The notes under the pieces are model-generated. The model ran no database searches. It had not been told where the DNA came from and worked only from the letters and a program-made list of their open reading frames with translations. A program made the position numbers and the translations under genes. DNA of 64,000 nucleotides, from assembly GCA_030390025.1 (NCBI GenBank), contig CM059431.1:147934001-147998000 (forward strand), given 5' to 3'. The DNA comes from Squalus acanthias. Taxonomy: Eukaryota. Below are positions 11,491 to 56,240 of this stretch, piece by piece. Every line of letters begins with the position of its first letter. The stretch's first letter is position 1.

Positions 11491-11508
11491 AAACAGGGAT
11501 TTCAGAAG

Positions 11509-32660: not shown

Positions 32661-33063
32661 TGGAAAACTACTCTCTTATCTAGCATAAATGTAGCGGTAC
32701 CACTAGAACGGAGAATACGGTCGCCTGTAATGCAACCGGACTGGTGTAATCACAAATATTGCAAGATTGGTTTCACTGTCTGGAGTATTTGTTGCACTTG
32801 ATTTGAGGGAAGTGAAGGGTCCTGAGGTTGGCTCTCTTCACCAATTATAGGAATAGGGTCAGCACCAGTACTGGGAAATTTCACTTTCCACTTGTAAACA
32901 ATGTTTTAATCTTGTTTTTGACACTGACCAGTAACAATGTCAACGTGTTCTTTTTATGTGACGTGTCAGATACAAAATCTAATTACCTGATTCTATTTGT
33001 TAAACGACTGTAACTAATGCTAATTATGATTTAATTGATTGACTCCCTGAAGGATTGATGTGT

Positions 33064-33076
33064 GGATAAATATAGG
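33064..33076 (+). promoter_or_regulatory. Candidate TATA-like box of the GPCR gene
   Basis: ggataaatatagg about 80 bp upstream of ATG 33150; a similar gtaaataagg lies upstream of the second GPCR. Confidence 0.4.
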
Positions 33077-33149
33077 TTCCCTTCCATTGCATCAGCCGTG
33101 CGCCAGTCAGATTTTCAACTCCGACAGAATTCTTCTTTTCTCACAGAAA

Positions 33150-34576
33150 ATGGGGCGACCAATTATTCTGCTGATCAAAGAGATTTACTACCCGATTCTC
33201 GCTGCCGTCGTTGTCCTCGGTGAGCCAATGTAACCTGTTTGTTGTTAATCTGTCTTAACTGTCATCTTGTTCCTGCAGCCTGTTGGATAAGGTAACGTGT
33301 TTCCCGGATGTCAACATTACACAGTCGGTAGTTACCGGAACAAACTCGTGAACTGTGAGTCCGCACTTTCTGCTTTCCCTATAATGCGATAATTTTACTG
33401 ATGTTACAATAATCTTTGAAGGTCCAACACGGGATTTTAGCTGATTTCCGGACCGTCTTGTCACCCCGTGCAGAGTGGGCAGTACAGCGGTTCATCAAAA
33501 TGTGTGGGTGTGTTTCCCAGGTCATGGCTCCAATATTAATCCTGTTCTCACACTGCTCCATGTTGATAATCACACTGACTGGACTGAGATGCTCTCAACA
33601 GGTATTTCCATATCTATTTCAATCAGACACGGGGACATTATTTCTCTCCTCTCTCTTTCTTACAGCGAACATGGTGACAATTGTGATTCTCTCCCGAGGA
33701 AACTGCGGCCTTTCCAAGTGTATCTCGGTCTACATGGTGGCCATGGCAAAAGCGGATCTACTGGTCATGATCATTAATGTAATGGTGTATCGTATTTTCA
33801 GTTTTCACTTTCCACTTTCATTCCTGTCCCACACTCCCGTGTGTAGGCTAATTATATACATGGCTACTGTCACCTTCGATTTGTCTGTTTGGTTCACCGT
33901 CTCCTTCACGTTTGATCGATTTGTAGCTCTCTGCTACCAGAAGTTTAAAACGAGGTATTGGACCGAGAGATCTGCGACTGCGATTATAGCAACCTTCTCT
34001 GTTTTGAGTGGTTTTAAGGATATTCCATTTTTGTTTGCATATGAACCTCAGCAAATAATCAACAATCAACATTGGGGCTGCGGATCAAGTCTGGCTTTCT
34101 TTCACTCCCCTCTAGGTGTGGGGTACGTCTGGTTTCACAGCGCCTGGTTGGTTTGGCTTCCCTTTACTTTAATTCTCCTCTTTAATTCATTAACCGTCCG
34201 CCGTATTTTAGTGGCCAATAGAGCCCGCAGAGGACTGCGGGGTCACAGGACTGAGAATCACAGCGATCCAGAGATGGAGAGCCGGAGGAAATCCATCATT
34301 TTACTGTTCACTATATCGGGCAGTTTTATACTGTTGTGGTTGACAGCTGCCGTGAGTTTTGTAACTACCAGACTGACAAACACCAATTATTACCGAGGCG
34401 ATCACACAGACCCTGGATATATCGCCACGGAAGCCGGAACATTGCTGAAGTTTTTGAGCTGCTTTCAAAACCCGTGTATTTATGCAGCGACCCAGAGGAA
34501 ATTCAGAGCAGAGCTGAAGAATGTGGTGAAATCTCCCTGGACACTGATTCTGAGATTAGTTAGAAATAGCGGATAA
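33150..34576 (+). CDS. GPR139/GPR142-like class A GPCR, 2 exons (33150-33219, 33666-34576), 326 aa, intact
   Basis: Exon 1 MGRPIILLIKEIYYPILAAVVVL + G|gtgag; acceptor ctctctttcttacag|; phase-1 join gives ANMVTIVIL. Seven hydrophobic segments, AMAKADLL (TM2), FDRF (DRY position), TM3/ECL2 Cys, FILLW (TM6), NPCIY (TM7). The supplied ORF start at 33416 is intronic. Confidence 0.9.
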
Positions 34577-34717
34577 GTAGAATCAATCAAACAAAAACTT
34601 CTTTTTAACGCCAGCTCAATTTCAACTATGTTTCAATGGTGGACCATCCTCTGTTCTGGTAATGTGAACAATGGTTGAGTTCTCGTGTGAACATTCCTTC
34701 CATTCCCAGCACACGCA

Positions 34718-34875
34718 AGGCCCAGAAATTCATCTCGGGCGTTGGCGCTAAACGGGCGATACCGGATCGTGCCGCCTGATATTCAGTTTCATTGACTTCT
34801 AATCGCTTCCTATAACCGGCGAACGATCCGATACCGCCCGTTTTGCGCCACCGCTCGAGACGAATTTCTAGGCCC
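34718..34875. mobile_element. ~158-bp hairpin MITE (Harbinger-like TIR)
   Basis: ggcccagaaattcatctcgggcgttggcgctaaacgggcgatacc pairs with ...ataccgcccgttttgcgccaccgctcgagacgaatttctaggccc. Confidence 0.8.
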
Positions 34876-35789
34876 AATGGCTGCATTACTTTCCTTTTTC
34901 ACACTTCTTGTACTGGGTAAACATAATCTATCCCTGCAAATTCAGCACGTTTCATGTTTAGGGATCAAATTTAACAAGGATGAGGTTCAGTAGTAGAGCC
35001 GGCCGAATGGGCAACAGAGCAATCCGCCTTACACTACAGATGCTGGGATTGGGCGCGCCAGTTTAAAATTATCATTAAAGTTTCAAAACATGATTAAAGT
35101 TTAAATTGGTGCCGAAACAATTAAAGGACTTGTGATCGCCTATCTGTCCTGAAAGTTTGGTGTGAATATTGCAGGCGCGGGTCTCTCTATTGGACATCAT
35201 TCCTCATTCACAAATATATCGGGGCTCTTGTCATGTGCTAAGTGTTAGAATGAAGGAAACAGCCGGAACTTGGCTCATCGATGTGACCTTTCACCTCTTT
35301 TGTCCCAGATACTTACTTAAAATCTGGATTGTCCGCTGACTGGTGTCTCCCACTCAGCAAAATGCTGGAGTCTGCCTTGTTTTGTGTGTTCGATAGAAGA
35401 ATCATGAATAATAATAATGCTGTTCTGACTCAACCAGTATCCCAAACAAATTAGTGAAGGAATATCAAAATTAATGTTTTGTCATAAAGTTACTAACTGT
35501 TACAATTGTTGCAAGTTATCTGTAAATAACATTGCCTGGAATCAAGAAAAAATCGAACTGATATTAAGTATTCTGTGTTTGGCGGAACATTTGCAGACGG
35601 TCAGAAAGAATCTTTGGTATATCATCCTCTCAACTTATTGTATTGATATGGTTCTCCCTTGAACACTTCGCCTGAAATGCATCATAAACCCTCTTTTTTT
35701 GTTTCATCATCTTCTCTATCTCCGTCGTCATCCAAGGAGCCCTTGTTTTGGTTCCCTTACCCTTCCCTCTTGTTGGAATGTACCACGCA

Positions 35790-36470
35790 ACCGTCACTAT
35801 AACACTGATATATGGGACACCCCTCGCTGTAACACTCAGATATAACCGACGCCCTCACAGTAACACTATGATATAACCCACACCTCTCACTGTTACACTC
35901 TGATGTATTCCACTCCCCCGACTATAACACTCTGTTATAGCACACCCACCCTTCACTTTACCGGACCGCTATTCCCGATAGCCCTCACTGTAGCACCCTG
36001 ATATACCCCTTACAGTAGCATTCTGATATACCCCACACCCCTCACTGAAATACTCTGATACACCCCAAGCCCCTCAATGTAACACTCTAATATACCCCAC
36101 ACTACACAATGTAGCACTCTGATATACCCCACAACCCTCACTCTAACACTCTGATATTCCCCACACCCCTCACTGTAACACTCTGATATACCCCACACCC
36201 CTCACTGAAATACTCTGATATAGCCCAAGCCACTCAATATAACACTCTGATAGACCCCACACTACTCAATGTAACACTCTGATATAAACCACACAGCCTC
36301 ACTCTAACACTCTGATACATGCCTCACACTACTGTGACTCCCCCCACCAGTCACTGTAATACTGATATTACCCACATCCCTCACTCTAACCCTCTGATAC
36401 ATGCCACACTCTGGACTGTTACTCCCCTCACCAATAACTGTAATAATGATATACGTCGCACCACTCACTG
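35790..36470 (+). repeat. ~32-bp minisatellite (cactgtaacactctgatataccccacacccct)n
   Basis: Visible degenerate tandem units. Confidence 0.88.
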
Positions 36471-36910
36471 TTGCCACTGCCACATTAATCCCATGGGCTT
36501 CAACTTTGGTAATATATGGTACTTTATCAAGCACCTTTTGTAAGGATAGGGAATTTGGCAAAGTGTGAGTAGTATCAATCATAAAACCATAGAATTGGTG
36601 AGACAAGTTGTGTTGACAATTTGTTTGGCGGACCATGACGACCCGCACTGATCACAGGTCTTGCCTGGTTTCAATTATTGAATTTCAAAATCAGTGATTT
36701 TAATCCCATTTTATTTTTTATATTTATTTGTTCTCAGGATATGGGTGAAGCTGTCAAGACCGGGATTACATTCTCATCCCTAGTTACCCATGAGCAAATG
36801 GTGGGCCTTCATCTTGAGCCGCTGCAGTCCGTGTGGTGAACGTGTTACTGTTACGGAAGGAATTTTATGCTTTTGACCCAGTCCCGATGAAGGAACGGCG
36901 ATATATTTGA

Positions 36911-37324
36911 AGGCTGCAGTAGCATAGTGGTTATGTTGCTGAACAAGTAAATAAGATGCCGGGACGAATAATCCTGAGTTGAAATCCCACCAGCTGGGGA
37001 ATTTAAATACAATTCATCAATCAAATCTGGAAAAAAGATTGCGTCAGTAATGGTGACCATGAAACGACCGGATTGTCGTAACAACACATCTGGTTCACTA
37101 TTGTCCTTTACGGAAGGACGTCTGCCGTCCTTATATATTGTGTCCAAAATGTGACTCCAGACCAACAGCAATGTCGTTGTCTCTTCGCTGCCCTCTGAAA
37201 TGGCCATACAAGCCACTCAGTTGTCTTAGGTGGCTCACCACCACCTTCTCCTGGACAATTATGGATGGGCAATAAATGGTGGCCTTGCCAGCGACATCCA
37301 CATCCCAAGAATGAATTTAAAAAA
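36911..37324 (+). mobile_element. tRNA-derived SINE, HE1-like
   Basis: A-box-like tagcatagtgg and B-box-like gttgaaatccc; 3' tail (ctcaccaccaccttctc...gatgggcaataaatg..ggccttgccagcgac...A-tail) matches the 3' end of the adjacent HER1-like LINE fragments. Confidence 0.7.
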
Positions 37325-37374
37325 TGATTAATTAATGTTCATAATGATTTACAAAGGGTTATACTGTATTATTT

Positions 37375-38280
37375 TATTTTATTCGTTTATGGATATGGGT
37401 GTCGCTGGCAAGGCCAGCATTTGTTGCCAATCCCTAATTGCCCTTGAGAAGGTGGTGGTGAGTCACCTTCTTAAACCGCTGGAGTCCCGTGTGGTGAAGT
37501 TACTGTTACAGTACTTTTAGGTAGGGACTTCCAGGATTTTGACCAAGCGATGATGAAGGTTCGGTGATATAATTCTAAGTCAGGATGGTGTGTGACTTGG
37601 AGGGGTACTTGGTGGTGATGGTGTTACCATGCGCATGCTGCCCTTGTCCTTCTAGGTGGAAGAGTTTGCGGGTGGGAGGCGCTGCCGAAGAAACCGTGGT
37701 GAGTTGCTACAGTGTATCCTGTAAATGGTACACTCTGCAGCCACGGTTCGCTGGTGAAGGAGGGAGTGAATGTTTAAGGTGGTAGGTGGGGTGCCAATCA
37801 AGCAGGCTGCTTTGTCCTGGATGGTGTTGCATTATTCAAGTGGCTGGACCAGATACGTTTCTGGTCAATGGTGACCCGCAGAAAGTTGATGGTGGGGGTC
37901 TCCGCGATGGTAATGCCATTAAATGTCAAGGATCGTTAGTTAGAGTCTCGCTTGTTGGAGATAGGCATTGCCTGGCAATTGTGCGGTGCAAATGTTAACT
38001 TCCACTAATCAGACCAAGCCTAAACGTCGTCCAGGTCCCGTTGCATGCGGGCATGGACTGCTTCATTATCTGAGGAGATGTGAATGGCACTGAACAATGT
38101 CCTGTCATCAGTGAACATCCTCATTTCTGACCTTCTGTTGGAGGTAAGGTCATTGATGAAGCAGCTGAAGATGGTTTGGCCCAGGACACTGCACTGATGA
38201 ACTCCTGCAGCGATGTCCTGGGGATGTGATGATTGACCTTCAACCACCACAACTATCTTGCTTTGTGCTAGGTATGACTA
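37375..38280 (-). mobile_element. HER1-like LINE 3' fragment, copy A (internal deletion near 37830)
   Basis: RT remnant GVHQCSVLGQTIFSCFINDL...FTDD; 3' tail shared with the SINE. Confidence 0.8.
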
Positions 38281-38420
38281 AGGATTATGATGTTTTATTA
38301 ATGGTCATAATGATTTATAAATGGTTATGATGTTTTATTAATGGTCATAATGATTTACAAGTTGTTATTAAGTTTTGTTAATGGTCATAGTGATTTATAA
38401 AGGGTTATAATGTATTTTTT
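38281..38420 (+). repeat. AT-rich ~40-bp repeat (ggttatgatgttttattaatggtcataatgatttataaa)
   Basis: 3-4 units here; same repeat at 37325-37375, 47085-47212 and 51365-51468. Confidence 0.8.
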
Positions 38421-39474
38421 ATATTCGTTTATGGTCTGTGGGTGTCGCTGGCAAGGCCAGCATTTGTTGCCCATCCGTAACTGCCCTTGAGAAGGTGGTG
38501 GTGAGCCGCCTTCTTGAACCGCTGCAGTCCGTGTGGTGAAGGTATTCCCTCAGTGCTGTTAGGATGGGAGTTCCAAGATTTTGACCTTGCGACGATGAAG
38601 GATCGGTGATATAATTCTAAGTGAGGATGGTGTGTGACTTGGAGGGTAACTTGGAGGTGGTGGTGTACCCATTCTCCTGCTGCCCTTGTCCTTCTAGGTG
38701 GAAAGGTTTTCAGGACTGGGAGGTGCTGCCGAAGAAGCTTTGGTGAGTTGCTGCAGTAGATGGCAAACACTGCAGCCACGGTACGCCGGTGGTGGAGGGA
38801 GTGAATGTTTAAGGTTGTAGATGGGGTGCCAATCAAGCGAGCTGCTTTGTCCTGGATGTTGTCGAGCTTCTTGATTGTTGTTGGAGTTGCACTCATCCAG
38901 GCAAGTGGAGAGTATTCCCTTACATTCCTTACTTGTACCTTATGGTTGGTAGAAAGGCTTTGGGGAGTCAGGAGGTGAGACACTCGCCGCAGAATATCTA
39001 GCTTCTGACCTGCTCTTGTTGGCACAGTATTCATGTGGCTGGTCCAGTTACGTTTCTGATCAATTGTGAACCCCAGGATGTTGATGGTGGGGGATTCGCC
39101 GATGGTAATGCCATTGAATGTCAAGGAGCGGTGGTTAGAGTCTCGCTTGTTGGAGTTAGTCTAGGCCTGACACTTCTGTGGGGCGAATGTTACCTGCCAC
39201 TAATCAGCTCAAGACTGAACGTCGTCCAGATCTTGTTGCATGCGGGCATGGACTGCTTTATTATATGAGGAGTTGTGAAGAGCACTGAACACTTTGCAGT
39301 ATTCAGCGAGCATCCCCATTTCTGCCCTTTGTTGGAGGGAAGATCATTGATGAAGCAGCTGATGATGGTTGTGCCTAGGACACTGCCCTGAGGAACTCCT
39401 ACAGCGATGTCCTGGGGTTGTGATGATTGACCTTCAACCACCATAACCATCTTCCTTTGTGCTAGGTATGACTA
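38421..39474 (-). mobile_element. HER1-like LINE 3' fragment, copy B
   Basis: GVPQGSVLG; C-terminal ORF 38429-39124 (VREYSPLAW, IQDKAARLI); same 5' breakpoint ctttgtgctaggtatgacta as copy A. Confidence 0.85.
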
Positions 39475-42400
39475 TGGTGTATAAGAACATAAGAACATAA
39501 GAAATAGGAGCAGGAATAGGCCACTTGGCCCCTCGAGCCTGCTCCGACATTGAATAAGATCATGGCTGATCTCGGGCTCAAAGCCACTTCCCAGCCCGCT
39601 CCCCATAATCCTTCACTCCCTTATCTTGCAATGCAAAACTGTGTCTATCTCCACTTTAAATGTATTTAATGACCCAGCGTCCAAGGCCCTCTGGGGCAGA
39701 GAATTGCACAGATTTACGAGCCTCTGAGAGAAGAAGTTCCTCCTCATCTCAGTTCTAAAAGGGCGACCCTTTATTCTGAGACCGTGTCCCCGAATGCTAG
39801 ATTCTCCCCTGAGGGGAAAAATCCTCGCTGCATCTACCCTTTCGAGACAACTCACAATCTCAAATATTTCGATAAGGTCACCTCTCATTCTTCTAAATTC
39901 CAAAGTGTATAGGCCCAGACCGCTCAATCTTTCCTCATAAGTCAAACCCCTCAGCTCTGGAATTAACCTAGTGAATCGTTTCTTGAACTGCCTGCAATGC
40001 AACTATACCCCTACTTAAATAAGGAGACCAAAACTGTTCACATTTCTCAATGTGTGGTCTCACCAATACCTTGTACAGTTGTAGCAGGACTTCCCTACTT
40101 TTATACTCCAACCCCCTTGAAATAAAGGACAACATTCCATTTGCCTTTTTGATTACTTGCTGTACCTGCATGCTAACTTTTTGTGTTTCATGCACAAGGA
40201 CACCCAGGTCCCGTTGAAATGTAGCATTTTGTAATCTCCCTCCATTTAAATAATAATTTGCTTTTTATTTTTCCTGGCCAAGTTGATAACCTCGCACTTT
40301 CCCACATTATACTCCATCTGCCAAATGTTTGCCCACTCACCAATCCTCTTTATATCCCTTTGCAGATTCCTTGAATCCTCTGCACAACTTGCTTTCCCAT
40401 CCATCTTTTTATCATCTGCAAATTTGGCTACATTACACTCGATCACTTCATCCAAGTCATTAATGTAGATTGTAAATAGTTGGGGCCGCAGCACCCATCC
40501 TTGTGGCACCCCACTAGTTACCGTTTGCAAACCAGAAAATGACCCATTTATCCCCACTCCCTGCTTTCTGTTAGTTAGCCAATTCTCTATCCATGCTAAT
40601 ATATTACCCCAACTCCGTGACCTCTCATCTTATGCAGAAAACTCTTTTATGTGACACCTTATCGAATGCCTTCTGGAAATCCAAATACACCACATCCACT
40701 TTCTCATCCTTGTCCACCCTGCTTGTTACATCCTCAAAGAACTCCAGCAAATTTGTTAAACTTGATTTCCTTTTCCTAAAACCATGCTGACTCAGTTTGA
40801 CTGCAGTATGTTTTTCTAAATGTCCTGCTACTGCTTCCTTAATGAAGGACTCCAGCATTTTCCCAACGCCAGATGTTAGGCTAACTGGTCTATAGTTTCC
40901 TGCTTTCTGTTTCCCTCCTACATTAAATAGGGATGCAGGCCATCTGGTCCAGGGGACTTGTCGTCTTTTATGCCCATTATTTTACTGAGTGTGATCGTGA
41001 TTTTCTTCAGTTTCCCACTCCCTGTGGCCCCTTGATTATTCATTATTTGGATGTTGTTAGTGTCTTCCACAGTGAAGACAGATGCAAAATATTTGTTCAG
41101 AGTCTCAGCCATTTCCCCGTTCCCCATTATTAATTCCCCAGTCTCATCCTCTAAGGGACCATCGTTTACTTGAGCTACCCTCTTCCTTTTTATATTCCTG
41201 TGGAAGTTCGTACTATCTGTTTTAATGGTTCTTGCCAGCTTACTCTCATAATTCTTCTTCTCTCTCTTTCTTTTTTTTTTCGTCAACCTCTGCTGGTTTT
41301 TAAAAAATTCCCAATGCTCTGGTCTCCCACTAATCTTGGCAACATTGTATGCCTTCGTTTTCCATTTGAAACCATCATTTACTTCCTTAGTTAGCCACGG
41401 ATGGTGCTCCCTTCTCTTAAAATCTTTCTTTCTCCTTGGAATATATTTTTCTTGAGAGTTATGAAATATCTCCTTAAATGTCTGCCACTGCATTTCAACT
41501 TTCTTACCCTGTAATTTGTTTTTCCAGTCCACTTTAGCCAGTTCTGCCCTCATGCCATTATAATTGCCTTTGTTTAAGATCAGGACACTGTTTTGGGAGA
41601 CAACTTTCTCACCCTCCAACTGAATTTGAAATTCAACCATACTATGATCACTCTTTCCTAGATGATCCTTTACTATGAGATCATTTATAAATTCTGTCTC
41701 ATTGCATAGTACCAGATCCAATATAGCTTGTTCCCTGTTTGGTTCCATTACATACTGTTCTAGGGAAACATCCCGGATGCACTCTATGAACTCCTCCTCC
41801 AGGCTACCATGGCCATTTTGATGTGTCCAATCAATATGGAGATTAAAATCACCCATGATTATTACCGTACCACTTTTTTACAGGCCTCCATTATTTGTTG
41901 ATTTATACTCTGTCCAACAGCATTGCTACTGTTCGGGGGCCTTCAGACTACGCCGCCCCAGAGACTTTTACCCCTTATTATTTTTTACCTCCACCCAAAC
42001 CGATTCTACATCTTGATCTACTGAGCCAATATCACTTCTCACCACTGCACTGATCCCATCTTTTACCAACAAAACCACCCCACCTCCCTTTCCTTTCATT
42101 CTATCCTTCCGAATTATCATATACCCTGGGAATATTCAGTTCCCAGCCCTGGTGGCCTTGCAACCACGTCTGTGTAATAGCAATCAGATCATACCGATTT
42201 GTATCTATTTGTGCCGTCAACTCATTTATCTTGTTACGAATGCTGCGTGCAATCAGATATAAAGCTTTTGGGGGAAAAATTCACTTGGTTGCGCCACCCG
42301 TTAGCGCCTTAAGAGGGCGCTAATAGGGCGTTAAGGCGCTAACGCCCGGGCGCAGCGCTGTTTGCGCCGCTCGAGAACTTAACTTGAGATTGTGCGGCGG

Positions 42401-42782
42401 CGCTGAAACTTACCGCTGCGACCACCTGCGCGCGCAGATTGTGAAGTCATTCCATGGTGCAACGCCCTTGGGGCGCCCCGGAGCAGAAATTGAGTGGCGC
42501 CCCCTGCCTTACCGCCTGGCGCGTCCAACGACCGGAAGACTGGAACGTTATCAATCGGTGTGGGGCTGGGGGGGGGCGCTATTTAAAGGGGGCCTCTTCC
42601 TGTCTTTTTCTGTGGTCGACATTTATGCACCACTCGTTCTGAGAGAGAGAGAGAGATTCGGAGAGAGAGAGCGAGAGACTTCTACATTGACTCAACGCTT
42701 TGTGAGGTAGTTTGGCCTAGTTCATCCTAACTTTGCTGCTACTTTAGTTGCTGTACCTCATTACTTTTCTGGCAAAGAGAAT

Positions 42783-43943
42783 ATGGGGGCTGCAATGATT
42801 GGGGGCGTCGTCCTGCTCCAGCTCAATCGGAGGATAGTGAGACACAGACAGAGAGTGGCAATGATGGCCAGACGGAGGAGGTCCATCAGGCGCATGTACA
42901 GGAGAGCTTACCCTCCCAGGGTATATCGTGAACAGCTCTCCTACATCCATATGTCCGAGGAGCTGTGTTTGCGAAGGCTGCGATTCAGCAAGGAGGTGGT
43001 CACTGAGCTCTGCCACCTGCTGCAGCCAGATCTGCAGCCTCAGCTGAGGTCCAGGACGTCTCTGTCGGTGGCAGTGAAGGTCACAGTGGCTTTGAACTTC
43101 TACGCCACTGGCTCATTCCAAGCTGCTGTTGGGGACCTCGCCAATATCTCCCAGTTTGCGGTGCATCGCTGCATCCGGCAGGTCACCAATGCCCTCTTCA
43201 CAAGGAGACGAGACTTCATCTCCTTCCCTATGACCCCAGACAAGCAGCATGACCGTGCTATGGGCTTTGCGAGGGTAGCGGGCTTCCCCATGGTGCAGGG
43301 CGCCATTGACTGCACGCATGTGGCTTTGCGTGCTCCGCGAGAGAATGCAGAGGAGTTCCGGAACAGAAAGGGGTTCCATTCCTTGAATGTGCAGTTGGTC
43401 TGTGACCACAGACAGGTGATTCTCGCTGTCAATGCCCACTATCCGGGCAGCTGCCACCATGCTTTCATCCTGCACCAGAGTACTGTGGCAGAAATTTTCG
43501 AGGCACCGCATCAGCCAGTTGGTTGGCTTCTGGGGGACAAGGGGTACGCACTGAGCACCTGGCTGATGACACCGCTCCGTGCGCCAAACACACCTGTTGA
43601 GCTGCGGTAGCAGGAAAGCCAACAAGCAACCAGGAACATTATTGAGCGTACAATCGGCGTGCTCAAACAACGATTCCGCTGTCTGGACCATTCCGGAGGA
43701 GCCCTGCAGTACTCGCCTGAGCAAGTTTCGAAATTCGTAGTCGTGTGCTGCATGTTGCACAACATGGCAATCCTCAGGACGCAGCCAATGCCACCAGGCC
43801 TTGCAGCACCACAAGAGGAGGAGGAGGAAGAGGAGGAACAGGACGAGGACGATGAACAGCAGCAGCAGCAAGGCAGGAGGGCGGCCCACAATGGTCAAAC
43901 TGCAAGGGCCGTCCGTCAACGACTAATAGCAAGCCGCTTCTAG
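42783..43943 (+). pseudogene. Harbinger (HARBI1-family) DDE transposase, premature TAG at 43608-43610
   Basis: GAIDCTH, NRKGFHSLNVQ, GDKGY, IERTIGVLKQRFRCL. Copy 2 has TAC at the stop codon. GSCHHA replaces the conserved GSxHDA. Confidence 0.92.
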
Positions 43944-44238
43944 GGCCCCTGCCATTGCTACAAACACGAATCAACCCAGCACGCAACCTCTAAGCCGGCC
44001 AAGGCACCAATAATTCCAACCACCAGCCATGTATATTTTGAATGCAGAAACTTATTTATTGTACAAACTCTGGGTGTGTCAATTCCTCATGACAAACTCA
44101 TAGAAATAAACACAAAAAAAACAGTCAATAACATAACTGGTTCTCACAACCTGGAGATAATGTCCAAAACACTAAACAAAAGTTGGGCCATGAACCTCGG
44201 CCTTTAATAAAAAAATGACCAGCATTTTGGCACACCTC

Positions 44239-46115
44239 CTACATTTTGCCCTTCGAGGGTGATCTCCTTCCCTTGCGCACTTCCCCCCTTCTAACCCTAC
44301 TGCTCCTCCGTAATGGGACCTCAGTGGCTGCAGCAAGGCTGATGGAAGGCTGCTGCTCGTCAGACCCTGACACTGCAGATGCCCCTGAAGGACGGCCTCG
44401 ACCACTTCTGGGCCTGGAGGGCCCGGCTGCAGACTGCACCAACTCTGCATGGGCGGCAGCAGTCTGTCCTACAGGCGGTGGCAAGTGCAGTCGAGAAGTG
44501 ACAGTGTTGGCAGCAGGAATGCTGTCATCGTGAGAGAGGACAGCAACTCCCTGCTCACCCGACACACTGGCACTCCCACGGGGCAGCACTTCAGCATCCG
44601 GAGCAATTTGCCGGAGAACAGATTGCTGGCCTGCTGCGGCGCGGTGACAGCCCCGGGGACATGTGCACGAACCATCGAGGATGGCAGCAGTCAGTGCTCG
44701 CGTGGCCTCAATCTGAGTCTGCATGAGAGCAGTCTCAGATGGGTTCCTGGCAGCCAGTGACTGAATTGCAGCACGAAGCTTTAGTGTGGCATCCGCCTGT
44801 GCTACAGCGAAGTGCTCCACACTCCTTGCCAGTGCCTCAATGCATTCGGGCACCCTTCCCACTGCACCCATGAGCTCAGTGTGCATGCCCACCGCCTGGC
44901 TGTTCATTTCTGCAATCAGCCGCTCCCCCTCTGCGTCCATTGCAGTAGGAGTGTCTGGCATACTCTCCCTCTGGGGAGAAGGCTCCCGTTCTTCCCTCCC
45001 CCCGCCATGGCGTTGCTGCAGCCCGCTGGGTCCTGGAGCTTCACCATCATCAGCCCCTTCCCCCCTGCTCCCCTCCGGGGAAGGCGTGTTCCCAGTGTGG
45101 CCATGGGCTTCCTCGGGAGAGGGTGGCACTGATGCTCCGGCTTCCTCTTCCTCCTCAGCTGCAGCATCACTCCCAGTGGCAGCTTCAGGGACCATCTCCT
45201 CAGCTGGTGAATCACCATCTGAAAGCAGGGAGGTACAAGAGTGGCTTTAGCGTGAGGACAGGGTGGCAGTAAGGGAGGAATAAGTGCAGCGAGTTAGCAA
45301 GTTGGATTGAAAGTGTCAAAGGCTGGTATTGTGAGGGACAAGTGGAAGCACAGAGGACAAAAAGGTGATGACCTTACCATTGCTGTCCACAACGGGGTCG
45401 GCGTCCCCAGTGGCGACGGGTCCGATCACCCAGCTTGCCACAATCCTGTGGACGCGCTCCTCCAGATCGCTGAGGGGTTGCAGCTGAAGCCGCCCTCCAC
45501 CCGTCCGTTGCTGCTGTCTCCGATTATGAGCCAGCTTAGCCTGCAAGAAAAAGGACAGCATCTGAGTAAATATACAGCCATGGTCTTGCCTGATGTGCCT
45601 CCCATAGGTGAATAGCCCTTACAATATGCAGCCATGGTCTTGCCTGATGTGCCTCCCATAGGTGAATAACCCTTACAATATGCAGCCATGGTCTTGCCTG
45701 ATGTGCCTCCCATAGGTGAATAGCCCTTACTGTATGCAAAGTGTGGAATGTGTGTGTGTGTTTGATGAAAGGGCCATAGGTGTTGCATGAGTGTTGTGCA
45801 TTGGGGTTTTAAGACCCTCTGGCCATATAGTGAGGTTGAGATGGAGGGATGGACAGGTATTGAGAAAAAGCCACTCACCCTGACGACCCGAGTGAGGTCG
45901 TTGAACTTTTTGCGGCACTGAACATGGGTCCTGGGCACCATGCTCCTGGAGGAGATGCTCTGAGCCACCTCCCTCCACACTCTTCTGAACTCGCGTGGCA
46001 AAGGCCTCCTGCCACTCTCCGGGAACAGCATGCATCGTCTGCGCTCCACTGCGCCAACCAGAGCATCCAAGGCCCGCTCGGTGAAGCGATGAGCGCGTTC
46101 TCTCACCCTCTCCAT
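44239..46115 (-). CDS. Harbinger Myb/SANT-like DNA-binding partner, 3 exons (46115-45879, 45540-45378, 45218-44239), 459 aa
   Basis: RF..RALDAL...VWREVAQ...QCRKKFNDL trihelix motif, then RTGGG; canonical GT-AG introns with phases 0 and 1 give an uninterrupted frame. Confidence 0.85.
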
Positions 46116-47569
46116 GCTTGTCAGCAAAATGGATTACAGGTCTCTCCAGGCTGAGATTCAAGGCTGCAATGAGCAGGGTGTGGCTGGGGAGCAAGTGCCC
46201 CCCCCCCTCCCCCCCCGCTTTAAGAAGTGTCCGGCGCCAGTGTGTCTGTGTTCCCTCGCTAACTGGCAGCAGCTGCGCTGCGCTCGTGCGCTGAGGTAGC
46301 GCCTCACTTCTAGGCCTTTGCGCCTTAAGAGAGGTGTGCAGCGCCTAATTTAGCACTCCACTCACCTCCCGGGGCGGTAAAAGTGAAGTTTCCTGTCAGT
46401 GCCTATAATTAGCGCCAGGCGCTAATATTTGCGCTCGGACGATATTTGCGCCCCAAATGGGGCGCGACCTAATTTCTACCCTTTTATCTTTGTATTTTTA
46501 CGATTTTTCCTTGTTTTGGTCTTTTTTTCTGTTACACTCTTATTTTTAATGATTCAGTCCCTTCCTGTCATACTCTGGTTATTATTTCACCCGTCTCCAG
46601 CCTGCTCTATTGCTTTCTCATTTATCATTGACTTTTAATTTTCCTGCTTATCTGGATCCTCCCCCCCCCCCACTTTTTACTTTAAAGCCCTCTCTACAGC
46701 CTTAGTTATTCCATTTGCCAGGACTCTAGCCTCAGCATAATGCAAGTGCAGCCCTTCGAAACGGAATAGTTCCCTCTTATCCGAGTACTGGTGCAAGCGC
46801 CCCACAAATCGAAACCCATTTCTCCCACACCAGTCTTTGAGCCACCCGTTCATTTATCTGATCTTATTTACCCGATGCAAATTCGCTCGTGGCTCAGGTA
46901 GTAATCCAGATATATTACATTTGTGGTTATGCTTTTTAATTTAACCCCTCGCGAGACATACTCTCTCAGCAGAACCTCTTTCTTTGTCCAACCTATGTCA
47001 TTGGTACCTCCGTGGACCATGACAACTGGATCTTCCCCCTCCCACTCCAAGTTTCTCTCCAGCCCAGAGGAGATGTCATAAACTTGGTTATGATGTTTTA
47101 TGAATGGTCATAATGATTTTTTAAGGGTTATGATGTTTTATTAATGGTCATAATGATTTATAAAGGATTGTAATGAAATATTAGTAGTCATTATGAGTTA
47201 GAAAGGTTTATTGGGGTAGAAATTAGGTCGCGCCCCATTTGGGGCGCAAATATCGTCCGGACGCAAATATTAGCGCCTGGCGCTAATTATCGGCACTGAC
47301 AGGAAACTTCACTTTTACCGCCCCGGGAGGTGAGTGGAGCGCTAAATTAGGCACTGCACACCTCTCTTAAGGCGCAAAGGCCAAGGAGTGAGGCGCTAAC
47401 TCAGCGCACGAGCGCAGCGCAGCTGCTGCCAGTTAGCGAGGGAACACAGACACAATGGCGCCGGACACTTCTTAAAGCGGGGGGGGGCACTTGCTCCCCA
47501 GCCACACCCTGCTCATTGCAGCCTTGAATCTCAGCCTGGAGAGACCTGTAATCCATTTTGCTGCCAAGC

Positions 47570-49398
47570 ATGGAGAGGGTGAGAGAACGCGCTCATCGCT
47601 TCTCCGAGCGGGCCTTGGATGCTCTGGTTGGTGCAGTGGAGCGCAGACGATGCATGCTGTTCCCGGAGAGTGGCAGGAGGCCTTTGCCACGCGAGTTCAG
47701 AAGAGTGTGGAGGGAGGTGGCTCAGAGCGTCTCCTCCAGGAGCATGGTGCCCTGGACCCATGTTCAATGCCGCAAAAAGTTCAACGACCTCACTCGGGTC
47801 GTCAGGGTGAGTGGCTTTTTCTCAATACCTCTCCATCCCTCCATCTCAACCTCACTCTATGGCCAGAGGGTCTTAAAACCCCAATGCACAAAACTCATCC
47901 AACACCTATGGACCTTTCATCAAACACACACACACATTCCACACTTTGCATACAGTAAGGGCTATTCACCTATGGGAGGCACATCAGGCAAGACCATGGC
48001 TGTATACAGTAAGGGCTATTCACCTATGGGAGGCACATCAGGCAAGACCATGGCTGTATATTTACTCAGATGCTGTCCTTTTTCTTGCAGGCTAAGCTGG
48101 CTCATAATCGGAGACAGCAGCAACGGACGGGTGGAGGGCGGCTTCAGCTGCAACCCCTCAGCGATCTGGAGGAGCGCGTCCACAGGATTGTGGCAAGCCG
48201 GGTGATCGGTCCCGTCGCCACTGGAGACGCCGACCCCGTTGTGGACAGCAATGGTAAGGTCATCACCTTTTTGTCCTCTGTCCTTCCACTTGTCCCTCAC
48301 AATACCAGCCTTTGACACTTTCAATCCAACTTGCTAACTCGCTGCACTTATTCCTCCCTTACTGCCACCCTGTCCTCACGCTAAAGCCACTCTTGTACCT
48401 CCCTGCTTTCAGATGGTGATTCACCAGCTGAGGAGACGGGCCCTGAAGCTGCCACTGGGAGTGATGCTGCAGCTGAGGAGGAAGAGGAAGCCGGAGCATC
48501 AGTGCCACCCTCTCCCGAGGAAGCCAATGCCCACACTGGGAACACGCCTTCCCCGGAGGGGAGCAGGGGGGAAGGGGCTGATGATGGTGAAGCTCCAGGA
48601 CCCAGCGGGCTGCAGCGACGCCATGGGGGGGCGGGGGGTAGGGAAGAACGGGGGCCTTCTCCCCAGAGGGAGAGTATGCCAGACACTCCTATTGCAATGG
48701 ACGCAGAGGAGGAGCGGCTGATTGCAGAAATGAACAGCCAGGCGGTGGGCATGCACACTGAGCTCATGGGTGCAGTGGGAAGGGTGCCCGAATGCATTGA
48801 ATCACTGGCAAGGAGTGTGGAGCACTTCGCTGTAGCACAGGCGGATGCCACACTAAAGCTTAGTGCTGCAATTCAGTCACTGGCTGCCAGGAACCCATCT
48901 GAGACTGCTCTCATGCAGACTCAGATTGAGGCCACGCGAGCACTGACTGCTGCCATCCTCGATGGTTCGTGCACATGTCCCCGGGGCTGTCACCACGCCG
49001 CAGCAGGCCAGCAATCTGTTCTCCGGCAAATTGCTCCGGATGCTGAAGTGCTGCCCCGTGGGAGTGCCAGTGTGTCGGGCGAGCAGGGAGTTGCTGTCCT
49101 CTCTCACGATGACAGCATTCCTGCTGCCAACACTGTCACTTCTCCACTGCACTTGCCACCGCCTGTAGGACAGACTGCTGCCGCCCATGCAGAGTTGGTG
49201 CAGTCTGCAGCCGGGCCCTCCAGGCCCAGAAGTGGTCGAGGCCGTCCTTCAGGGGCATCTGTAGTGTCAGGGTCTGACGAGCAGCAGCCTTCCACCAGCC
49301 TTGCTGCAGCCAATGAGGTCCCATTACGGAGGAGCAGTAGGGTTAGAAGGGGGGAACTGCGCAAGGGAAGGAGATCACCCTCGAAGGGCAAAAAGTAG
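47570..49398 (+). CDS. Harbinger Myb/SANT-like partner, 3 exons (47570-47806, 48091-48253, 48413-49398), 461 aa
   Basis: Donors agg|gtgagt and atg|gtaag; acceptors ttcttgcag| and ctttcag|; frame open to TAG 49396-49398. Confidence 0.85.
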
Positions 49399-49692
49399 GA
49401 GGTGTGCCAAAATGCTGGTCATTTTTTTATTAAAGGCCGAGGTTCATGGTCCAACTTTTGTTTAGTGTTTTGGACATTATCTCCAGGTTGTGAGAACCAG
49501 TTATGTTATTGACTGTTTTTTTGTGTTTATTTCTATGAGTTTGTCATGAGGAATTGACACACACAGAGTTTGTACAATAAATAAGTTTCTGGATTCAAAA
49601 TATACATGGCTGGTGGTTGGAATTATTGGTGCCTTGGCCGGCTTAGGGGTTGCGTGCTGGGTTGATTCGTGTTTGTAGCAATGGCAGGGGCC

Positions 49693-50853
49693 CTAGAAGC
49701 GGCTTGCTATTAGTCGTTGACGGACGGCCCTTGCAGTTTGACCATTGTGGGCCGCCCTCCTGCCTTGGTGCTGCTGATGATCATCGTCCTCGTCCTCTTC
49801 CTCCTCTTCCTCCTCCTCCTCTGGTGGTGCTACAAGGCCTGGTGGCATTGGCTGGGTCCTGAGGATTGCCATGTTGTGCAACATGCAGCACACGACTACG
49901 AAGTTCGAAACTTACTCAGGCGAGTACTGCAGGGCTCCTCCGGAATGGTCCAGACAGCGGAACCGTTGTTTCAGCACGCCGATTGTGCGCTCAATAATGT
50001 TCCTGGTTGCTTGATGGCTTTCATTGTACCGCAGCTCAGCAGGGGTGTTTGGCGTATGGAGCGGTGTCATCAGCCAGGTGCTCAATGCGTACCCCTTGTC
50101 CCCCAGAAGCCAACCAACTGGCTGATGCGGTGCCTCGAAAACTTCTGCCACAGTAGTCTGGCGCAGGATGAAAGCATCGTGGCAGCTGCCCGGATAGTGG
50201 GCATTGACAGCGAGTATCACCTGTCTGTGGTCACAGACCAACTGCACATTCAAGGAATGGAATCCCTTCCTGTTCCTGAATTCCTCTGCATTCTCTCGCG
50301 GAGCACGCAAAGCCACATGCGTGCAGTCAATGGCGCCCTGCACCATGGGGAAGCCCGCTACCCTCGCAAAGCCCAGAGCACGGTCACGCTGCTTGTCTGG
50401 GGTCATAGGGAAAGAGATGAAGTCTCGTCTCCTTCTGAAGAGGGCATTGGTGACCTGCCGGATGCAGCGATGCACCGCAAACTGGGAGATATTGGCGAGG
50501 TCCCCAACAGCAGCTTGGAATGAGCCAGTGGCGTAGAAGTTCAAAGCCACTGTGACCTTCACTTCCACCAACAGAGACGTCCTGGACCTCAGCTGAGGCT
50601 GCAGATCTGGCTGCAGCAGGTGGCAGAGCTCAGTGACCACCTCCTTGCTGAATCGCAGCCTTCGCAAACACAGCTCCTCGGACATATGGATGTAGGAGAG
50701 CTGTTCACGATGTACCCTGGGAGGGTAAGCTCTCCTGTACATGCACCTGATGGCCCTCCTCCGTCTGGCCATCATTGCCACTCTCTGTCTGTGTCTCTGT
50801 ATCCTCCGATTCAGCTGGAGCAGGACGACGCCCCCAATCATTGCAGCCCCCAT
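49693..50853 (-). pseudogene. Harbinger DDE transposase, premature TAA at 49912-49914
   Basis: IDCTH, GSCHDA, GDKGY and IER acidic residues all present. CAA in copy 1 is TAA here, removing the C-terminal ~73 aa including CCMLHN. Confidence 0.92.
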
Positions 50854-51467
50854 ATTCTCTTTGCCAGAAAAGTAATGAGGTACAGCAACTAAAGTAGCAA
50901 CAAAGTTAGGATGAATAGGCAAAACTACCTCACAAAGCGTTGAGTCAATGTAGAAGTCTCTCTCTATCTCTCTCCGAATCTCTCTCTCTCTCTCAGAACG
51001 AGTGGTGCATAAATGTCGACCACAGAAAAAGACAGGAAGAGGCCCCCTTTAAATAGCGCCCCCCCCAGCCCCACACCGATTGATAACGTTCCAGTCTTCC
51101 GGTCGTTGGAAGCGCCAGGCGGTAAGGCAGGGGGCGCCACTCAATTTCCGCTCCGGGGCGCCCCAAGGGCGTTGCGCCATGGAATGACGTCACAATCTGC
51201 GCGCGCAGGTGGTCGCAGCGGTAAGTTTTAGCGCCGCCGCACAATCTCAAGTTAAGTTCTCGAGCGGCGCAAACAGCGCTGCGCCCGGGCGTTAGCGGCT
51301 TAACGCCCCATTAGCGCCCTCTTAATGCGCTAACGGGAGGCGCAACCAAGTGAATTTTTACCCCATAATGTTTTTTTAATGGTCTTAATTATTTACAAAA
51401 GTTTATGATTTTTAGTTAATAGCCATAATGATTTATAAAGGGTTATGTTGTTTTGTTAATGGTCATT

Positions 51468-51953
51468 AATGCTCGCCCTCGCCGCCCGCCCTATTCTCAG
51501 GGTAACCAGGCCTCCCGCTGCTGCCGCCCTCTGGACTCTGGCCTTCCTCCGTCACTCCGAGGCCTCGCTTCTGGGAAAGGGGGAACCTCAATGGTGACAA
51601 TCGACCCAGGGGGAAGCCCCCGATAGAGAGAGAGAGAGAGAGCGACAGACGCCATCTTTGAGCGGGGCGCCATTGCCGCCATCTTTGAACAGGGCCGGTC
51701 CCGCGTTTTTGCTCATTGAGCGGCGCCGCCATCTTTTTCTAGGGCAGGGCTGCCGCCATCTTAGTGCGGGCAGGAGTTGCGCAACGTTAGGAGGCGCGTT
51801 TGGTGTCGGCCATCTTTGTCTCGGGCACTGCTGCCTTTCCAGAGGGGCCTGACAGATGGACGCGCCACTGACAGGGTGGCCAGTGGAGACAGTGTGTGAG
51901 TGAGCGTGTTAATGTCCCCAGATCACTGGCGGCTCACTCAAAATATCAGGCCC
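51468..51953. mobile_element. GC-rich fragment of a probable non-autonomous DNA element
   Basis: Repeated gccatctt motifs; terminus aaaatatcaggccc resembles the other MITE ends. Confidence 0.35.
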
Positions 51954-54204
51954 AGGCAACTCTCAGGCTGCAATGTCTCCGCTTCTTCTCATCATTTAAT
52001 GAATTTTACAATTAGAGTAAAGGGTTATTTCCCCACATTCTTCAACTGCTCTCTGAACTTAGTCTGGGTCACGGCATAAATCCCAGTGTTTGTGCAGCAA
52101 CTCAGCAGCTGCAGCATCAATGCTATTTCCTGTACATAAAGAGGTAGAGATACAGAATGATACTCCGAATACCACAACCGGTTCCATAGAAATTCACCAT
52201 AAACATTGCCCATAACAAGATGAAATTGCCGGAGATAACAAGCAGTAAAATGATGGATTTCCTGCGGCTCTCCATCTCTGGGTCTCTGGGACTCTCCCCA
52301 CTGCTGGGACCCCGGAGTCTCCTGCGGGCTCTGCTGGCCACTAAAATGTGTCTGACGGTGACAGCATTGAGCAGCAGAATCACCACAAATGGTACGCCCG
52401 GGGTGAGAAGATAATGAACGAGCTCGATTGCTCCCCAGACCCGTGAAATCATCACAGTGTATGTTACCTCACAAAACCAGGGGGTAGTTCTGAAGCTGAT
52501 ACCGATCCGTCAACGAAAAATACCAGGCGATGTTCTTTAAACCGCTCAGCACAGTCACTGTTCCCAGAACCACAGCCGCCGTTTTCTCGGTGCAATATTT
52601 AGTTTTCAGCTTCTGGAGACAAATGGCCACAAATCGATCAAAGGTGAAAGTGACGGTGAACCAGACAAAACAGTCTGTGGCTGCATAAATCAGGACGGCG
52701 TGGATATTACACACGCTTTTGAATCGTAGGAATTGAAACTGTTCCCTATAAACAATCGGAATCTGCCTCAATATCAGGTCGAGGATAATAACCAGTAGAT
52801 CCGCCGCTGCCATGGCCACCAGGTAGCGAGTGACACATTTGGAGAGACCGCACCTTCCCCGAGACAGGATCACAATCGTCACTAAGTTCACTGTGAGAAA
52901 GGGAAATAAACAGGGAAATTAAAAATCAGGCTGCGAGCAAGAGCAGCAGTTTGATGGAAATCGGGGAGAAATATGCGAATCAATAGCGACATTAAATGAT
53001 ATAATCTAATTCTATTAACTGTGGAGCTGAATACAGGGTTTATTGTAAGAAAAATCGGGAATAAATTGTTGAATCAATAAATGAAAAGGTGATAAAAGCA
53101 ACAGGAATGTAGCCAATGTTTTATCAATGAGAGATTAAATGGTAGACCTGCCTTGAACCCAGCAGACAGAAGCTCCGCCCGAGGTACCGGGGACTCAAAG
53201 GACCAGAACCTCTCAGGAAGCCTTCGGTTCCCGGGATCAGTCAGCATTTGGAGAGTTGCAATACGCTTCAATGCCCCTTGTGTTAGGGAGGAGGAAATCC
53301 CGCTTGGACTCATGCGCCTGGTCAGAATATCCTTTATATTTGAGAACTGAAAATGAAAAGAACAGCAAAATACAGAAACTGCAATCTTGGCGTTCAATAA
53401 TTACAGGCAATTGTATTTAAAATGTACGGCTGTAATATGCAAATGCTAAGATAATTAATACAAGTGCACTGCAGTTATAAAGATAACCGGGCTGCAAGAA
53501 ATCTTTTGAAGATTGAGTTTTCTACATTTATGCTGAAATACACAAATTCTAGCTCATTGAAAGGAAGATTTTCCAAATATCATAAATAGTGGGAACAGAA
53601 TTAAAATAAATACTTATCATGGATCAAGTAATATCCGACTAAATGCATTTATTAGCATCATAATCAGGCGAATTATCCAACAGGCAATCTGATGCCGAAT
53701 GTATTTGAAAAGTATCTGAACACAAATGGAATAGATTTATCCTTGTACGTTTTCACCTGTTGGTTTCCAACTTGTGCAGAAAATATTAGTCGAGAAAATA
53801 TGAAAGGATTTTCTTACCCTCAGTACTTCAGTTATAATCAGCTGGGATTGTTTATCCTGCAGTACAGCAGGAGGCAATAGAGAATCACTCCGGGTCTCAC
53901 TGAGAGATCCACTGAACTGTGACAGACGGGCATGGGATCCAATTGTAAATTCAAAGCAAAGATTGGAAATAAACGCATTGAAATATGTCTGAGTGAACGT
54001 TTTTGAGAATGTAAATTATCCTTGTGATCCTTTTCTAACCATCAGAAGCAGTGCCACTAATGCAGAGCTGGAGATGGTGGGAAAGAAGACATTGAATGGA
54101 ACTGAATGATTCGCGGATATTTCAGACATATAAAGATGTGGGTGTGATCTGCCAGGATTTGTTCCTGTGACTCTGTGTCAGTAACCACGCCGAGCATTCA
54201 GTGA

Positions 54205-54340
54205 AAACAAAAGCAAATTACTGCGAATGTTGTAAATCTGAAATAAGCACAGAAAATGTTTTCAATACTCAGCAGGTCAGGCAGCATCTGTGGAGAGAGA
54301 GAGGGAAATAACTTTTCAGGTCGATGACCTTTCGCCATTT
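54205..54340 (-). mobile_element. Penelope pseudo-LTR fragment in GPCR intron
   Basis: cagcaggtcaggcagcatctgtggagagag...ttcaggtcgatgacctttcg matches 21368-21460; hammerhead core is degenerate. Confidence 0.75.
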
Positions 54341-54534
54341 GGTGAAAAGTCTCCTAAACCAAGACAACATTATTCTGATCTGTTACAAATGTGCAGTGGA
54401 GAGAACAGAATGAAATTCGTTAAATAAAGAGCATCGTCCAATATCGTTTCTTGAGTTGAATATCGAACTATTGAATCTTGGTAATACTGTAACACATTCA
54501 GAATCAATAGCCGAGAGCAGCGCGGATGGGATGG

Positions 54535-54935
54535 TGAATGACAAGGAGAGAAATACAGTAAAACATGATTTATAGAATGAATAGCTGGATACAGGCTCTT
54601 ACCAGGGACACCAACAGCAGCGAAGCGCGGGGGAATCAGTGACAAGAACAGTAATACAGTGAAACATGATTTACAGATTTAATAGTTGGATACAGGGACT
54701 TACCAGGGACACCAACAGTAGCGAAGCGCGGGGGAATCAGTGAAAAGAACAGTAAAACAGTGAAACATTATTTAAAGATTTAATAGTTGGATATAGAGAC
54801 TTACCAGGGACACCAAAGTAGTGAGGGATGAGGGGCGGGATAATTGACAAGCCCTTTAATACAGTTAAACATGATTTACAGTATTAATAGTTGGATACAG
54901 AGACTTACAAGGTGAATCAATAGCAGCGAGAATGC
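54535..54935 (-). repeat. ~101-bp tandem repeat of GPCR exon-1 3' end plus splice donor
   Basis: cttacca.ggacaccaacagcagcga-like units at 54598, 54699, 54800 and 54904 mirror the real junction at 55084. Confidence 0.85.
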
Positions 54936-55509
54936 GACTGACTTTTTAAACAACTCTTGTTTTAACAAAGATGCAACAACTTGAAAGACAGAATACAATT
55001 AAGAACTGAATTTGCCACGGTAAACAGCAATAATAATATTACAGTGTAACATGGTTTATAGAATTAATAACTGGACATAGATTCTTACTAGGAACACCAA
55101 CAGCAGCGAGGGGCGGATAGAAAATCTGTTGTATATCATTAACTATTGCCATCATCCGCTCCAGTTCAAGATCACTTTCCATAGAGCTGCCGGAACCCAT
55201 GCCTTCCCTCTGTAAGAGGCCGGTGGTCTTTGTGCGGGAGGCAGCGCGCTGATTGTGTGAGGTCACACAGCGAAGGGATCTCCTTATTTACAGCAGAGAA
55301 AAATCCCCGAGTGACATAATTAGGCCGAACTGTAACTGACATTAATTACAGTCACTGAACAAACAGACTCATTGAACCATTGTCACCACAACACTTCACT
55401 GCAACACAATCAGAAGTAGCTGAGTTTTCATCTTCTCTGGACAGAATTTTATACATTGCCAGAAATAGATTTAATTCCATTCGGGCTCAGTTTGAGGATC
55501 CAGTGAATA

Positions 55510-56240
55510 GCTGAGCCACACGGAGCAGGAAAGGCCCAGGCTCCATCCCCGGCCTGTGCCGAATGATTCAGATCTCACCTGGTGTGGTGCTGATCCCCAC
55601 AAACACAAAGCATTGAAGGCCCAGGTTACAACCTCGACCTGTGCTGTGTTAGCCTGATCTCACACACGGTGTGGTACTGAGCCCACACACACACACACAC
55701 AAAGCATGGAAGGTCCAGGCTAAAACGTCGGCCTGTGCTAAGTGAATCTAATCTGACACCCGGTGTGATACTGAGCCCCAGACACATAGAGCAAGAAAGG
55801 CCCAGGCTCCATCCTCGGGCTGTGCTGAATGAGCTGATCTCACACCCGGTGTGGTACTGAGCTCCTCACACACAGAGAAGGAAAGGCCCAGGCTCCATCC
55901 CCGGCCTGTGTTCAGTGACTCTAATCCGACATCCGGTGTGGTCCTGAGCTCCACATACACAGACAGAGCAGGAAAGGAAAGGCTCCATCCCCGGACTGTG
56001 GTAACTGATACTAATCCCACACCCTGTGTGGTCCTGAGCCCCCCACACACAGACAGAGCAGGAAAGGAAAGGCTCCATCCCCGGTCAATGCTGAGTGAGC
56101 TGATCTCACACCCGGTGTGGTAACGAGCCCCACCCACAGAGCAGGAATTGCCCAGGCTCCATTCCCGGCCTGAGCTGTGTCAGCCTTATGTCATCCAGTG
56201 TGGTACTGCGCCCCTCACACACACACAGAGCAGGAAGTTC
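55510..56240 (+). repeat. ~80-bp tandem repeat, same family as 1-330
   Basis: gagcaggaaaggcccaggctccatccccggcctgtg...gatctcacacccggtgtggtactgagcc, about 8-9 units. Confidence 0.85.

Follow-up and report, generated by a model that had tools for sequence, protein, structure and literature searches.

Do two receptor genes in a shark genome belong to a larger sensing repertoire, and which part of the protein varies among its members? We addressed this for genes A and B in a window of 64,000 nucleotides (nt) from Squalus acanthias (assembly GCA_030390025.1, contig CM059431.1, positions 147,934,001 to 147,998,000, forward strand), numbered here from its first letter. A preliminary description of this DNA had seen one intact and one dying GPR139/GPR142-like receptor, conserved on the signalling side and variable on the ligand side, and had proposed a large uncharacterised family in cartilaginous fish. 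We found that such a family of class A G-protein-coupled receptors (GPCRs) exists, that it is large, old and no artefact, and that A and B are ordinary members of it. Among the shark paralogues, the predicted ligand pocket varies more than any other part of the protein, whereas in their single-copy relatives it is the best conserved. On balance, we favor reading the family as a many-ligand sensor repertoire of the chemosensory type.

Two receptor genes with a conserved inner and a divergent outer face

The two genes comprise the following features.

33150-34576, plus strand: gene A, whole; intact class A GPCR of 326 amino acids
33150-33219, plus strand: gene A exon 1; 70 nt, phase-1 donor, short N-terminus and first half of transmembrane helix (TM) 1
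33220-33665, plus strand: gene A intron; 446 nt, GT..AG, phase 1
33666-34576, plus strand: gene A exon 2; remaining TM1 through helix 8, stop codon
55200-51992, minus strand: gene B, whole; two frameshifts and a premature stop
55200-55089, minus strand: gene B exon 1; 112 nt, phase 1, choice of start codon uncertain among four in-frame ATGs
55088-52891, minus strand: gene B intron; 2198 nt
52890-51992, minus strand: gene B exon 2; pseudogenic
52480-52484, minus strand: gene B, one base gained in a C5 run in extracellular loop (ECL) 2, leading to a stop at 52469-52471
52184-52194, near 52190, minus strand: gene B, one base lost at the end of TM6
52025-52027, minus strand: gene B, premature TAA in helix 8

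With gene A on the plus strand and gene B on the minus strand, the genes are convergent, and they share the architecture described earlier: a short exon 1 and a phase-1 intron at the same position in TM1. A tblastn search across the 64-kb window found no third family member. Overall, the two proteins are identical at 148 of 310 aligned positions, and this identity is unevenly distributed, with 108 of 162 intracellular positions identical (67%) versus 36 of 139 extracellular ones (26%; Fisher p = 1e-12) and 5 of the 27 pocket positions defined below. The strong extracellular divergence noted earlier is thus borne out. All intracellular motifs quoted at that time as near-identical are indeed present; that wording overstates the likeness of the intracellular half as a whole, given its 67%. 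Across this half, the ratio of nonsynonymous to synonymous rates (dN/dS) between A and B is 0.27. The introns show no similarity above chance.

We considered gene conversion as a source of the intracellular identity. Synonymous codons were identical at 72 of 109 sites outside the extracellular parts versus 18 of 41 within them, and fourfold sites at 30 of 52 versus 8 of 17. No conversion tract was found (best-window p 0.6-0.9), and gene conversion is not supported by these comparisons.

Gene A is intact, as the preliminary description had it. Its spliced reading frame of 326 amino acids contains no internal stop and matches 7tm_1 in a Pfam scan (E = 1.7e-21), and the AlphaFold model of exon 2 (mean predicted local distance difference test score, pLDDT, 90) has the helical-bundle GPCR fold. 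In a Foldseek search, this model resembled class A receptors and did not tell peptide-type GPCRs apart from one another. Besides 7tm_1 and the seven-helix fold, gene A has the D/ERY-type motif (as DRF), W6.48, the C3.25-ECL2 disulfide pair, the TM7 N..xY motif, helix 8 and a conserved face formed by intracellular loops (ICLs) 2 and 3, TM6 and helix 8. It retains 99 of 102 near-invariant subfamily positions; we rejected decay of gene A, as these 3 departures compare with a subfamily median of 4. Gene A is predicted to be a working member of the family.

Gene B, with two frameshifts and a premature TAA, is the dying gene of the preliminary description and, judged by these lesions, a dead member of the same receptor family. 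One lesion is homopolymeric and two are not, and assembly error is an unlikely cause. The base missing near 52190 is present in paralogous contigs of all three sequencing runs with the same species label, so gene B departs from its relatives there; this comparison is with paralogous contigs, not with gene B's own reads. The contigs span exon 2, the intron and the upstream region. Because no joint between exons 1 and 2 occurs among the contigs listed, and the run type was guessed, they are uninformative on expression.

Five units of ~101 nt (54539-55125) repeat the end of exon 1 of gene B together with the splice donor; four of them are decayed inner copies within the intron (54539-54945). The donor reads G|GTAAG in the inner copies versus A|GTAAG in the real exon 1. 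The intron also carries a short high-copy repeat (54240-54330), over which contig depth was very high in each of the three runs.

The predicted ligand pocket varies most among shark paralogues

We defined 27 pocket positions, 13 of them from the GPR139 structure paper, in the portion available (PMC8807744), and 14 as generic class A positions from general knowledge, and took the helix topology from the AlphaFold model. Rows with less than 90% core coverage were dropped, which left 118 of 120 subfamily-A proteins and 50 of 97 family representatives, and 88 of 120 and 21 of 22 proteins in two lineages of single-copy relatives. Expressed relative to the mean over the protein, pocket entropy was 1.45 in the subfamily-A set and 1.51 in the family representatives, compared to 0.59 (88 proteins) and 0.17 (21 proteins) in the single-copy lineages. 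The variability of the shark pocket exceeded that of random outer-TM sets (permutation p <= 3e-4), and family-wide the pocket reached 2.74 bits versus 2.09 bits at other outer-TM positions (p = 1e-4).

The same contrast holds for the two faces of the protein. The ratio of extracellular to intracellular entropy was 1.53 and 1.80 in the shark sets versus 1.13 and 0.59 in the single-copy lineages. At matched overall identity (45-56%), shark pairs had a pocket identity of 0.26 versus 0.65 in the control lineage, and an ICL identity of 0.59 versus 0.39. The earlier claim of a conserved signalling face and a variable ligand face therefore stands, with a contrast that exceeds that of single-copy relatives. 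So does the excess of extracellular variation on which that claim had been staked in advance, seen between A and B (36/139 vs 108/162) and in the entropy ratios of both shark sets (1.53, 1.80). Within one species, nearly every paralogue has its own 13-residue pocket string (31 of 32, 24 of 28 and 23 of 24 were distinct).

At position 6.51, the second single-copy lineage (described below) has R in 100% of its proteins; amphioxus likewise has R, amphibians have K, and the shark residues are scattered. This pattern suggests that the shark expansion may have been accompanied by loss of an ancestral basic anchor residue.

A large and old family of cartilaginous fishes

Searching with gene A exon 2, we obtained 1775 of 2822 candidate proteins at E <= 1e-3. 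The best 120 of the 1775 matches are all from sharks (60-82% identity), mostly carry the label 'probable G-protein coupled receptor 139' and divide by genus into 33 Pristiophorus, 28 Heterodontus, 25 Heptranchias and 34 others; such per-species counts, from the best 120 of 1775, cover only the subfamily nearest gene A. Recent expansion shows in single-species clades of 17, 10, 10, 6, 5 and 4 proteins. At 50% identity, 103 clusters reached E <= 1e-30 in an exhaustive search. Of 20 family-side representatives, 19 are named shark, skate, stingray or Callorhinchus (one via a cluster member) and 1 is unnamed. These numbers agree with the large uncharacterised family proposed at the outset. In metagenomes, 2 of 16 candidates were related loci, at 27-32% identity. 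None of the first 30 of 226 PF00001 rows in a whale-shark orthogroup table was recognisable as the shark receptor family.

We inferred an IQ-TREE phylogeny from 53 rows, selected from 79 (32 family, 4 amphibian, 2 sturgeon, 9 second lineage, 3 amphioxus and 3 invertebrate outgroups). GPR139 and GPR142 are not in it, as no true copy of either occurred among the 433 fetched proteins scanned. The chondrichthyan family forms one group (support 93/88), and its sister is an amphibian and sturgeon gene (97/91). This sister, represented by one entry per species in 20 amphibian clusters and a sturgeon (P0218, P0403-P0422), is an unstudied orphan whose pocket is basic and nearly invariant (K6.51, K6.55, R7.35, R2.61). 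A second lineage (P0221, P0285-P0402) has mostly one entry per species in sharks, coelacanth, ray-finned fish, amphibians and reptiles; its pocket is highly conserved, two of its members carry the annotation TMEM183A isoform, and mammals and birds are absent from the best 120 of 145 matches. It is a separate clade (100/100) with its own shark members (P0285, P0288, P0292). A and B lie outside that clade, and we rejected their membership in the lineage of coelacanth P0221.

Within the family, the closest relative of gene A is a sawshark protein (81%). The subfamily of gene B (100/100) contains sawshark, horn shark and zebra shark proteins and, in a FastTree run, one from a skate. The Callorhinchus protein P0137 groups on gene B's side (99/90), which places the A/B split before the divergence of chimaeras and elasmobranchs; by this tree, A and B represent ancient subfamilies. 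As they belong to different deep subfamilies, they are neither recent duplicates nor parent and daughter. They are old neighbours, or were brought together. The birth-and-death pattern read into this locus is thus visible in the species-specific expansions and the one pseudogene, and not in A and B as a recent pair.

The family is GPR139-like without being GPR139

A profile of the family searched against the PDB, that is, solved structures only, ranked GPR139 first (121 bits) and the neurotensin receptor next (88 bits), so an assignment to the GPR139/GPR142 branch is reasonable. Gene A itself aligned to human GPR139 with 26 bits (E = 3e-5), below CCKBR and the motilin receptor. True GPR139 orthologues are 70-96% identical, zebrafish at 70%, and the gene has two exons, according to the part of PMC7318219 consulted. 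The agonist pocket of GPR139 consists of R6.51, E3.32, F3.33, N7.39, H5.42 and W6.48 (PMC8807744, in part). Both A and B keep 2 of these 6 residues, H5.42 and W6.48; at the positions of R6.51/E3.32/F3.33/N7.39, gene A has A/A/T/T and gene B has F/I/Y/L. Since R6.51, E3.32 and N7.39 are not kept, the Trp/Phe sensing of GPR139 does not carry over. Orthology of A and B to GPR139 was rejected on the 26 bits, set against the 70% zebrafish benchmark, and the loss of 4 of 6 pocket residues. The earlier assignment to GPR139/142 consequently fails for GPR139 in the sense of orthology or ligand and is not borne out for GPR142, of which no sequence or structure occurred among the matches; the database name 'probable GPR139' appears from these alignments to be a best-match label. 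The one-to-one orthology to GPR139 that had been named as an outcome contradicting a shark repertoire is likewise absent, with 26 bits for gene A and tens of shark copies.

A shared upstream block

Upstream of both genes we found a common block.

32988-33084, plus strand: gene A upstream block; common with gene B, ends in the TAAATATA element at 33067-33074
55272-55371, minus strand: gene B upstream block; common with gene A, TAAATAA at 55290-55284

The alignment over ~100 nt has a local score of 47, which was reached by 1 of 1000 shuffles and by 0 of 664 other window tiles. The block contains a TRTTTGT element, a TAAT-core element and TAAATA, which we take to be putative Fox, homeodomain/POU and TATA sites. 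A TATA-like box had been reported for both genes; the element does lie inside the shared block, with the non-canonical sequence TAAATA(T/A). A promoter motif scan of metagenome contigs gave 0 matches.

Proposed function and alternative explanations

We consider a chemosensory-type repertoire for many ligands the best account of this chondrichthyan-expanded family, at a confidence somewhat above even. The orthosteric pocket of each paralogue would take its own ligand, small or peptide-like, and a single G protein would serve them all, which on the precedent of GPR139 would be Gq/11 or Gi. A shared proximal promoter would place the paralogues in the same cell type, most likely chemosensory cells (in the nose, taste organs, skin or gut); of all steps, this last one has the least support. 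Copies would arise by local duplication and disappear as pseudogenes. In a bolder form, to which we give rather less than even credence, this would be the cartilaginous fishes' own chemoreceptor family, independent of OR, TAAR, V1R and V2R: derived from the GPR139/142 branch before the chimaera-shark split, mislabelled 'probable GPR139', switched on in one sensory cell type by a promoter common to its members, and left as a single conserved gene in amphibians and sturgeon.

Several observations weigh against the chemosensory reading. Within subfamily A, the difference in variability between the pocket (1.55 bits) and the remaining outer-TM positions (1.25 bits) is not significant (p = 0.13). 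The control comparison sets paralogues against orthologues, which favors the contrast, and its pairs are not independent. Between A and B, the proportion of nonsynonymous extracellular differences (pN 0.47) is below that of synonymous ones (pS 0.76), with pS saturated and two coding sequences only. The copy counts, taken from the best 120 of 1775 matches, include some isoforms and possibly haplotigs. Finally, the top-50 gene list for catshark 'brain & olfactory epithelium' in the available part of PMC11979771 contains no GPCR, a weak negative.

The foremost alternative is a danger-sensing repertoire like the rodent MRGPRs and FPRs, two families with the same variable-pocket pattern. Leukocytes, mast-like cells or somatosensory neurons would use diverse pockets for microbial or damage peptides and a single pathway. 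The sequence signature of pocket variability fits this equally well, and cartilaginous fish are reported, in the part of PMC8455134 consulted, to be without MAS1 and its relatives, leaving that niche open. Against it, the top profile matches (GPR139 121 bits, neurotensin receptor 88) show no MRGPR or FPR kinship, and we regard it as rather unlikely.

Non-adaptive drift in copy number is less probable still. Small two-exon genes would have multiplied in repeat-rich regions with an unconstrained pocket, and many copies would be silent. The locus is rich in satellites and LINE fragments and has two recent Harbinger-type elements, one of its two genes is dead, and the pN and pS values above do not demonstrate positive selection. 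Drift is hard to reconcile with subfamilies that persist across sharks, skates and a chimaera, with the intracellular dN/dS of 0.27 and the 99 of 102 near-invariant positions kept by gene A, with a family-wide pocket more variable than neighbouring outer-TM positions, and with an upstream block conserved between genes whose introns share nothing above chance. We hold it very improbable that the family members are GPR139-type receptors redundant with one another, for aromatic amino acids or for a single class of endogenous peptide: human GPR139 is the top solved-structure match and both genes keep H5.42 and W6.48, but R6.51, E3.32, F3.33 and N7.39 are replaced in both and 6.51, R or K elsewhere, is scattered in the shark family.

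Genomic surroundings

Between the genes lie two ~4.2-kb Harbinger-type transposons (42261-46481 and 47214-51373), inverted, 732 nt apart and 96-98% alike. Each has a DDE_Tnp_4 transposase, a Myb/SANT gene and short terminal inverted repeats, and each transposase has one premature stop, at different sites. Minisatellites closely flank both receptor genes, at 32000-32770 (47-nt units), 35770-36420 (32-nt) and 55480-56220 (~87-90-nt). Many fragments of CR1/L2-type reverse transcriptase/endonuclease from long interspersed nuclear elements (LINEs) are spread in several pieces over 13250-41900, and a Penelope-like element lies near 21600-23100; both were recognised from translations only. An ~11 kb, strongly G-skewed degenerate tandem repeat (700-11730) contains a 200-N gap and long spurious open reading frames.

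Literature and significance

The expansion is apparently undescribed. Literature searches, which covered mostly top-ranked results and neither subscription papers nor the catshark supplement, returned no description of it. Papers combining GPR139 and shark include none on the shark receptor family, as judged by title or start of abstract, and the parts consulted of PMC11979771, PMC10620051 and PMC8455134 do not describe it. Individual genes are already annotated routinely in NCBI and UniRef, under the misleading name.

Cartilaginous fish are described as relatively poor in GPCRs and olfactory receptors (PMC8455134, in part). A mislabelled class A family that numbers tens of diverse receptors in a shark genome would revise this GPCR-poor picture, and is a candidate for unexplained chemical sensing or danger sensing in sharks. 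It also means that the GPR139/142 branch has several non-mammalian lineages. The single-copy amphibian sister gene (Xenopus, axolotl) allows study of the ancestral ligand and expression.

Comparison with known systems

GPR139 is an orphan class A receptor that, like GPR142, responds to L-Trp and L-Phe. The shark family resembles GPR139 in its top solved-structure match, the two-exon gene, W6.48 and H5.42 in genes A and B, and a non-canonical TM7 motif in most members. In the profile alignment it differs from GPR139 in having the C3.25-ECL2 cysteines and in the greater length of ECL2 and ICL3, and it numbers tens per species versus one GPR139.

Rinne et al. 2019 (PMC6504862, in the part available) report three unnamed GPR139/142-related 'GPR210' sets in coelacanth, gar and teleosts. 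These occupy the same tree neighbourhood as the shark family, and no expansion is described for them there; the main text, as far as available, has 0 occurrences of 'shark' or 'cartilaginous'. The lineages of coelacanth P0221, amphibian/sturgeon P0218 and sturgeon P0265 may be the GPR210 sets.

Beyond the shark family, the next matches are mollusc/flatworm-type receptors (25-29%). Its atlas neighbours include chordate 'FMRFamide receptor-like' proteins as well as clusters partly with Srw/Srx/Srsx Pfam matches (10-74% of members). In the tree, this FMRFamide-receptor-like and Srw/Srx branch is only a distant outgroup, and we regard it as a lead.

With respect to OR, TAAR, V1R and T2R profiles, Pfam gives 7tm_1 only and no olfactory or vomeronasal model. 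The OR, TAAR, V1R, MRGPR and FPR repertoires combine compact genes, many paralogues, lineage-specific clades and pseudogenes with a conserved signalling face and a variable pocket. At the sequence level, the shark family shows the same general pattern; it is homologous to these repertoires only as class A and differs from them in the intron within TM1.

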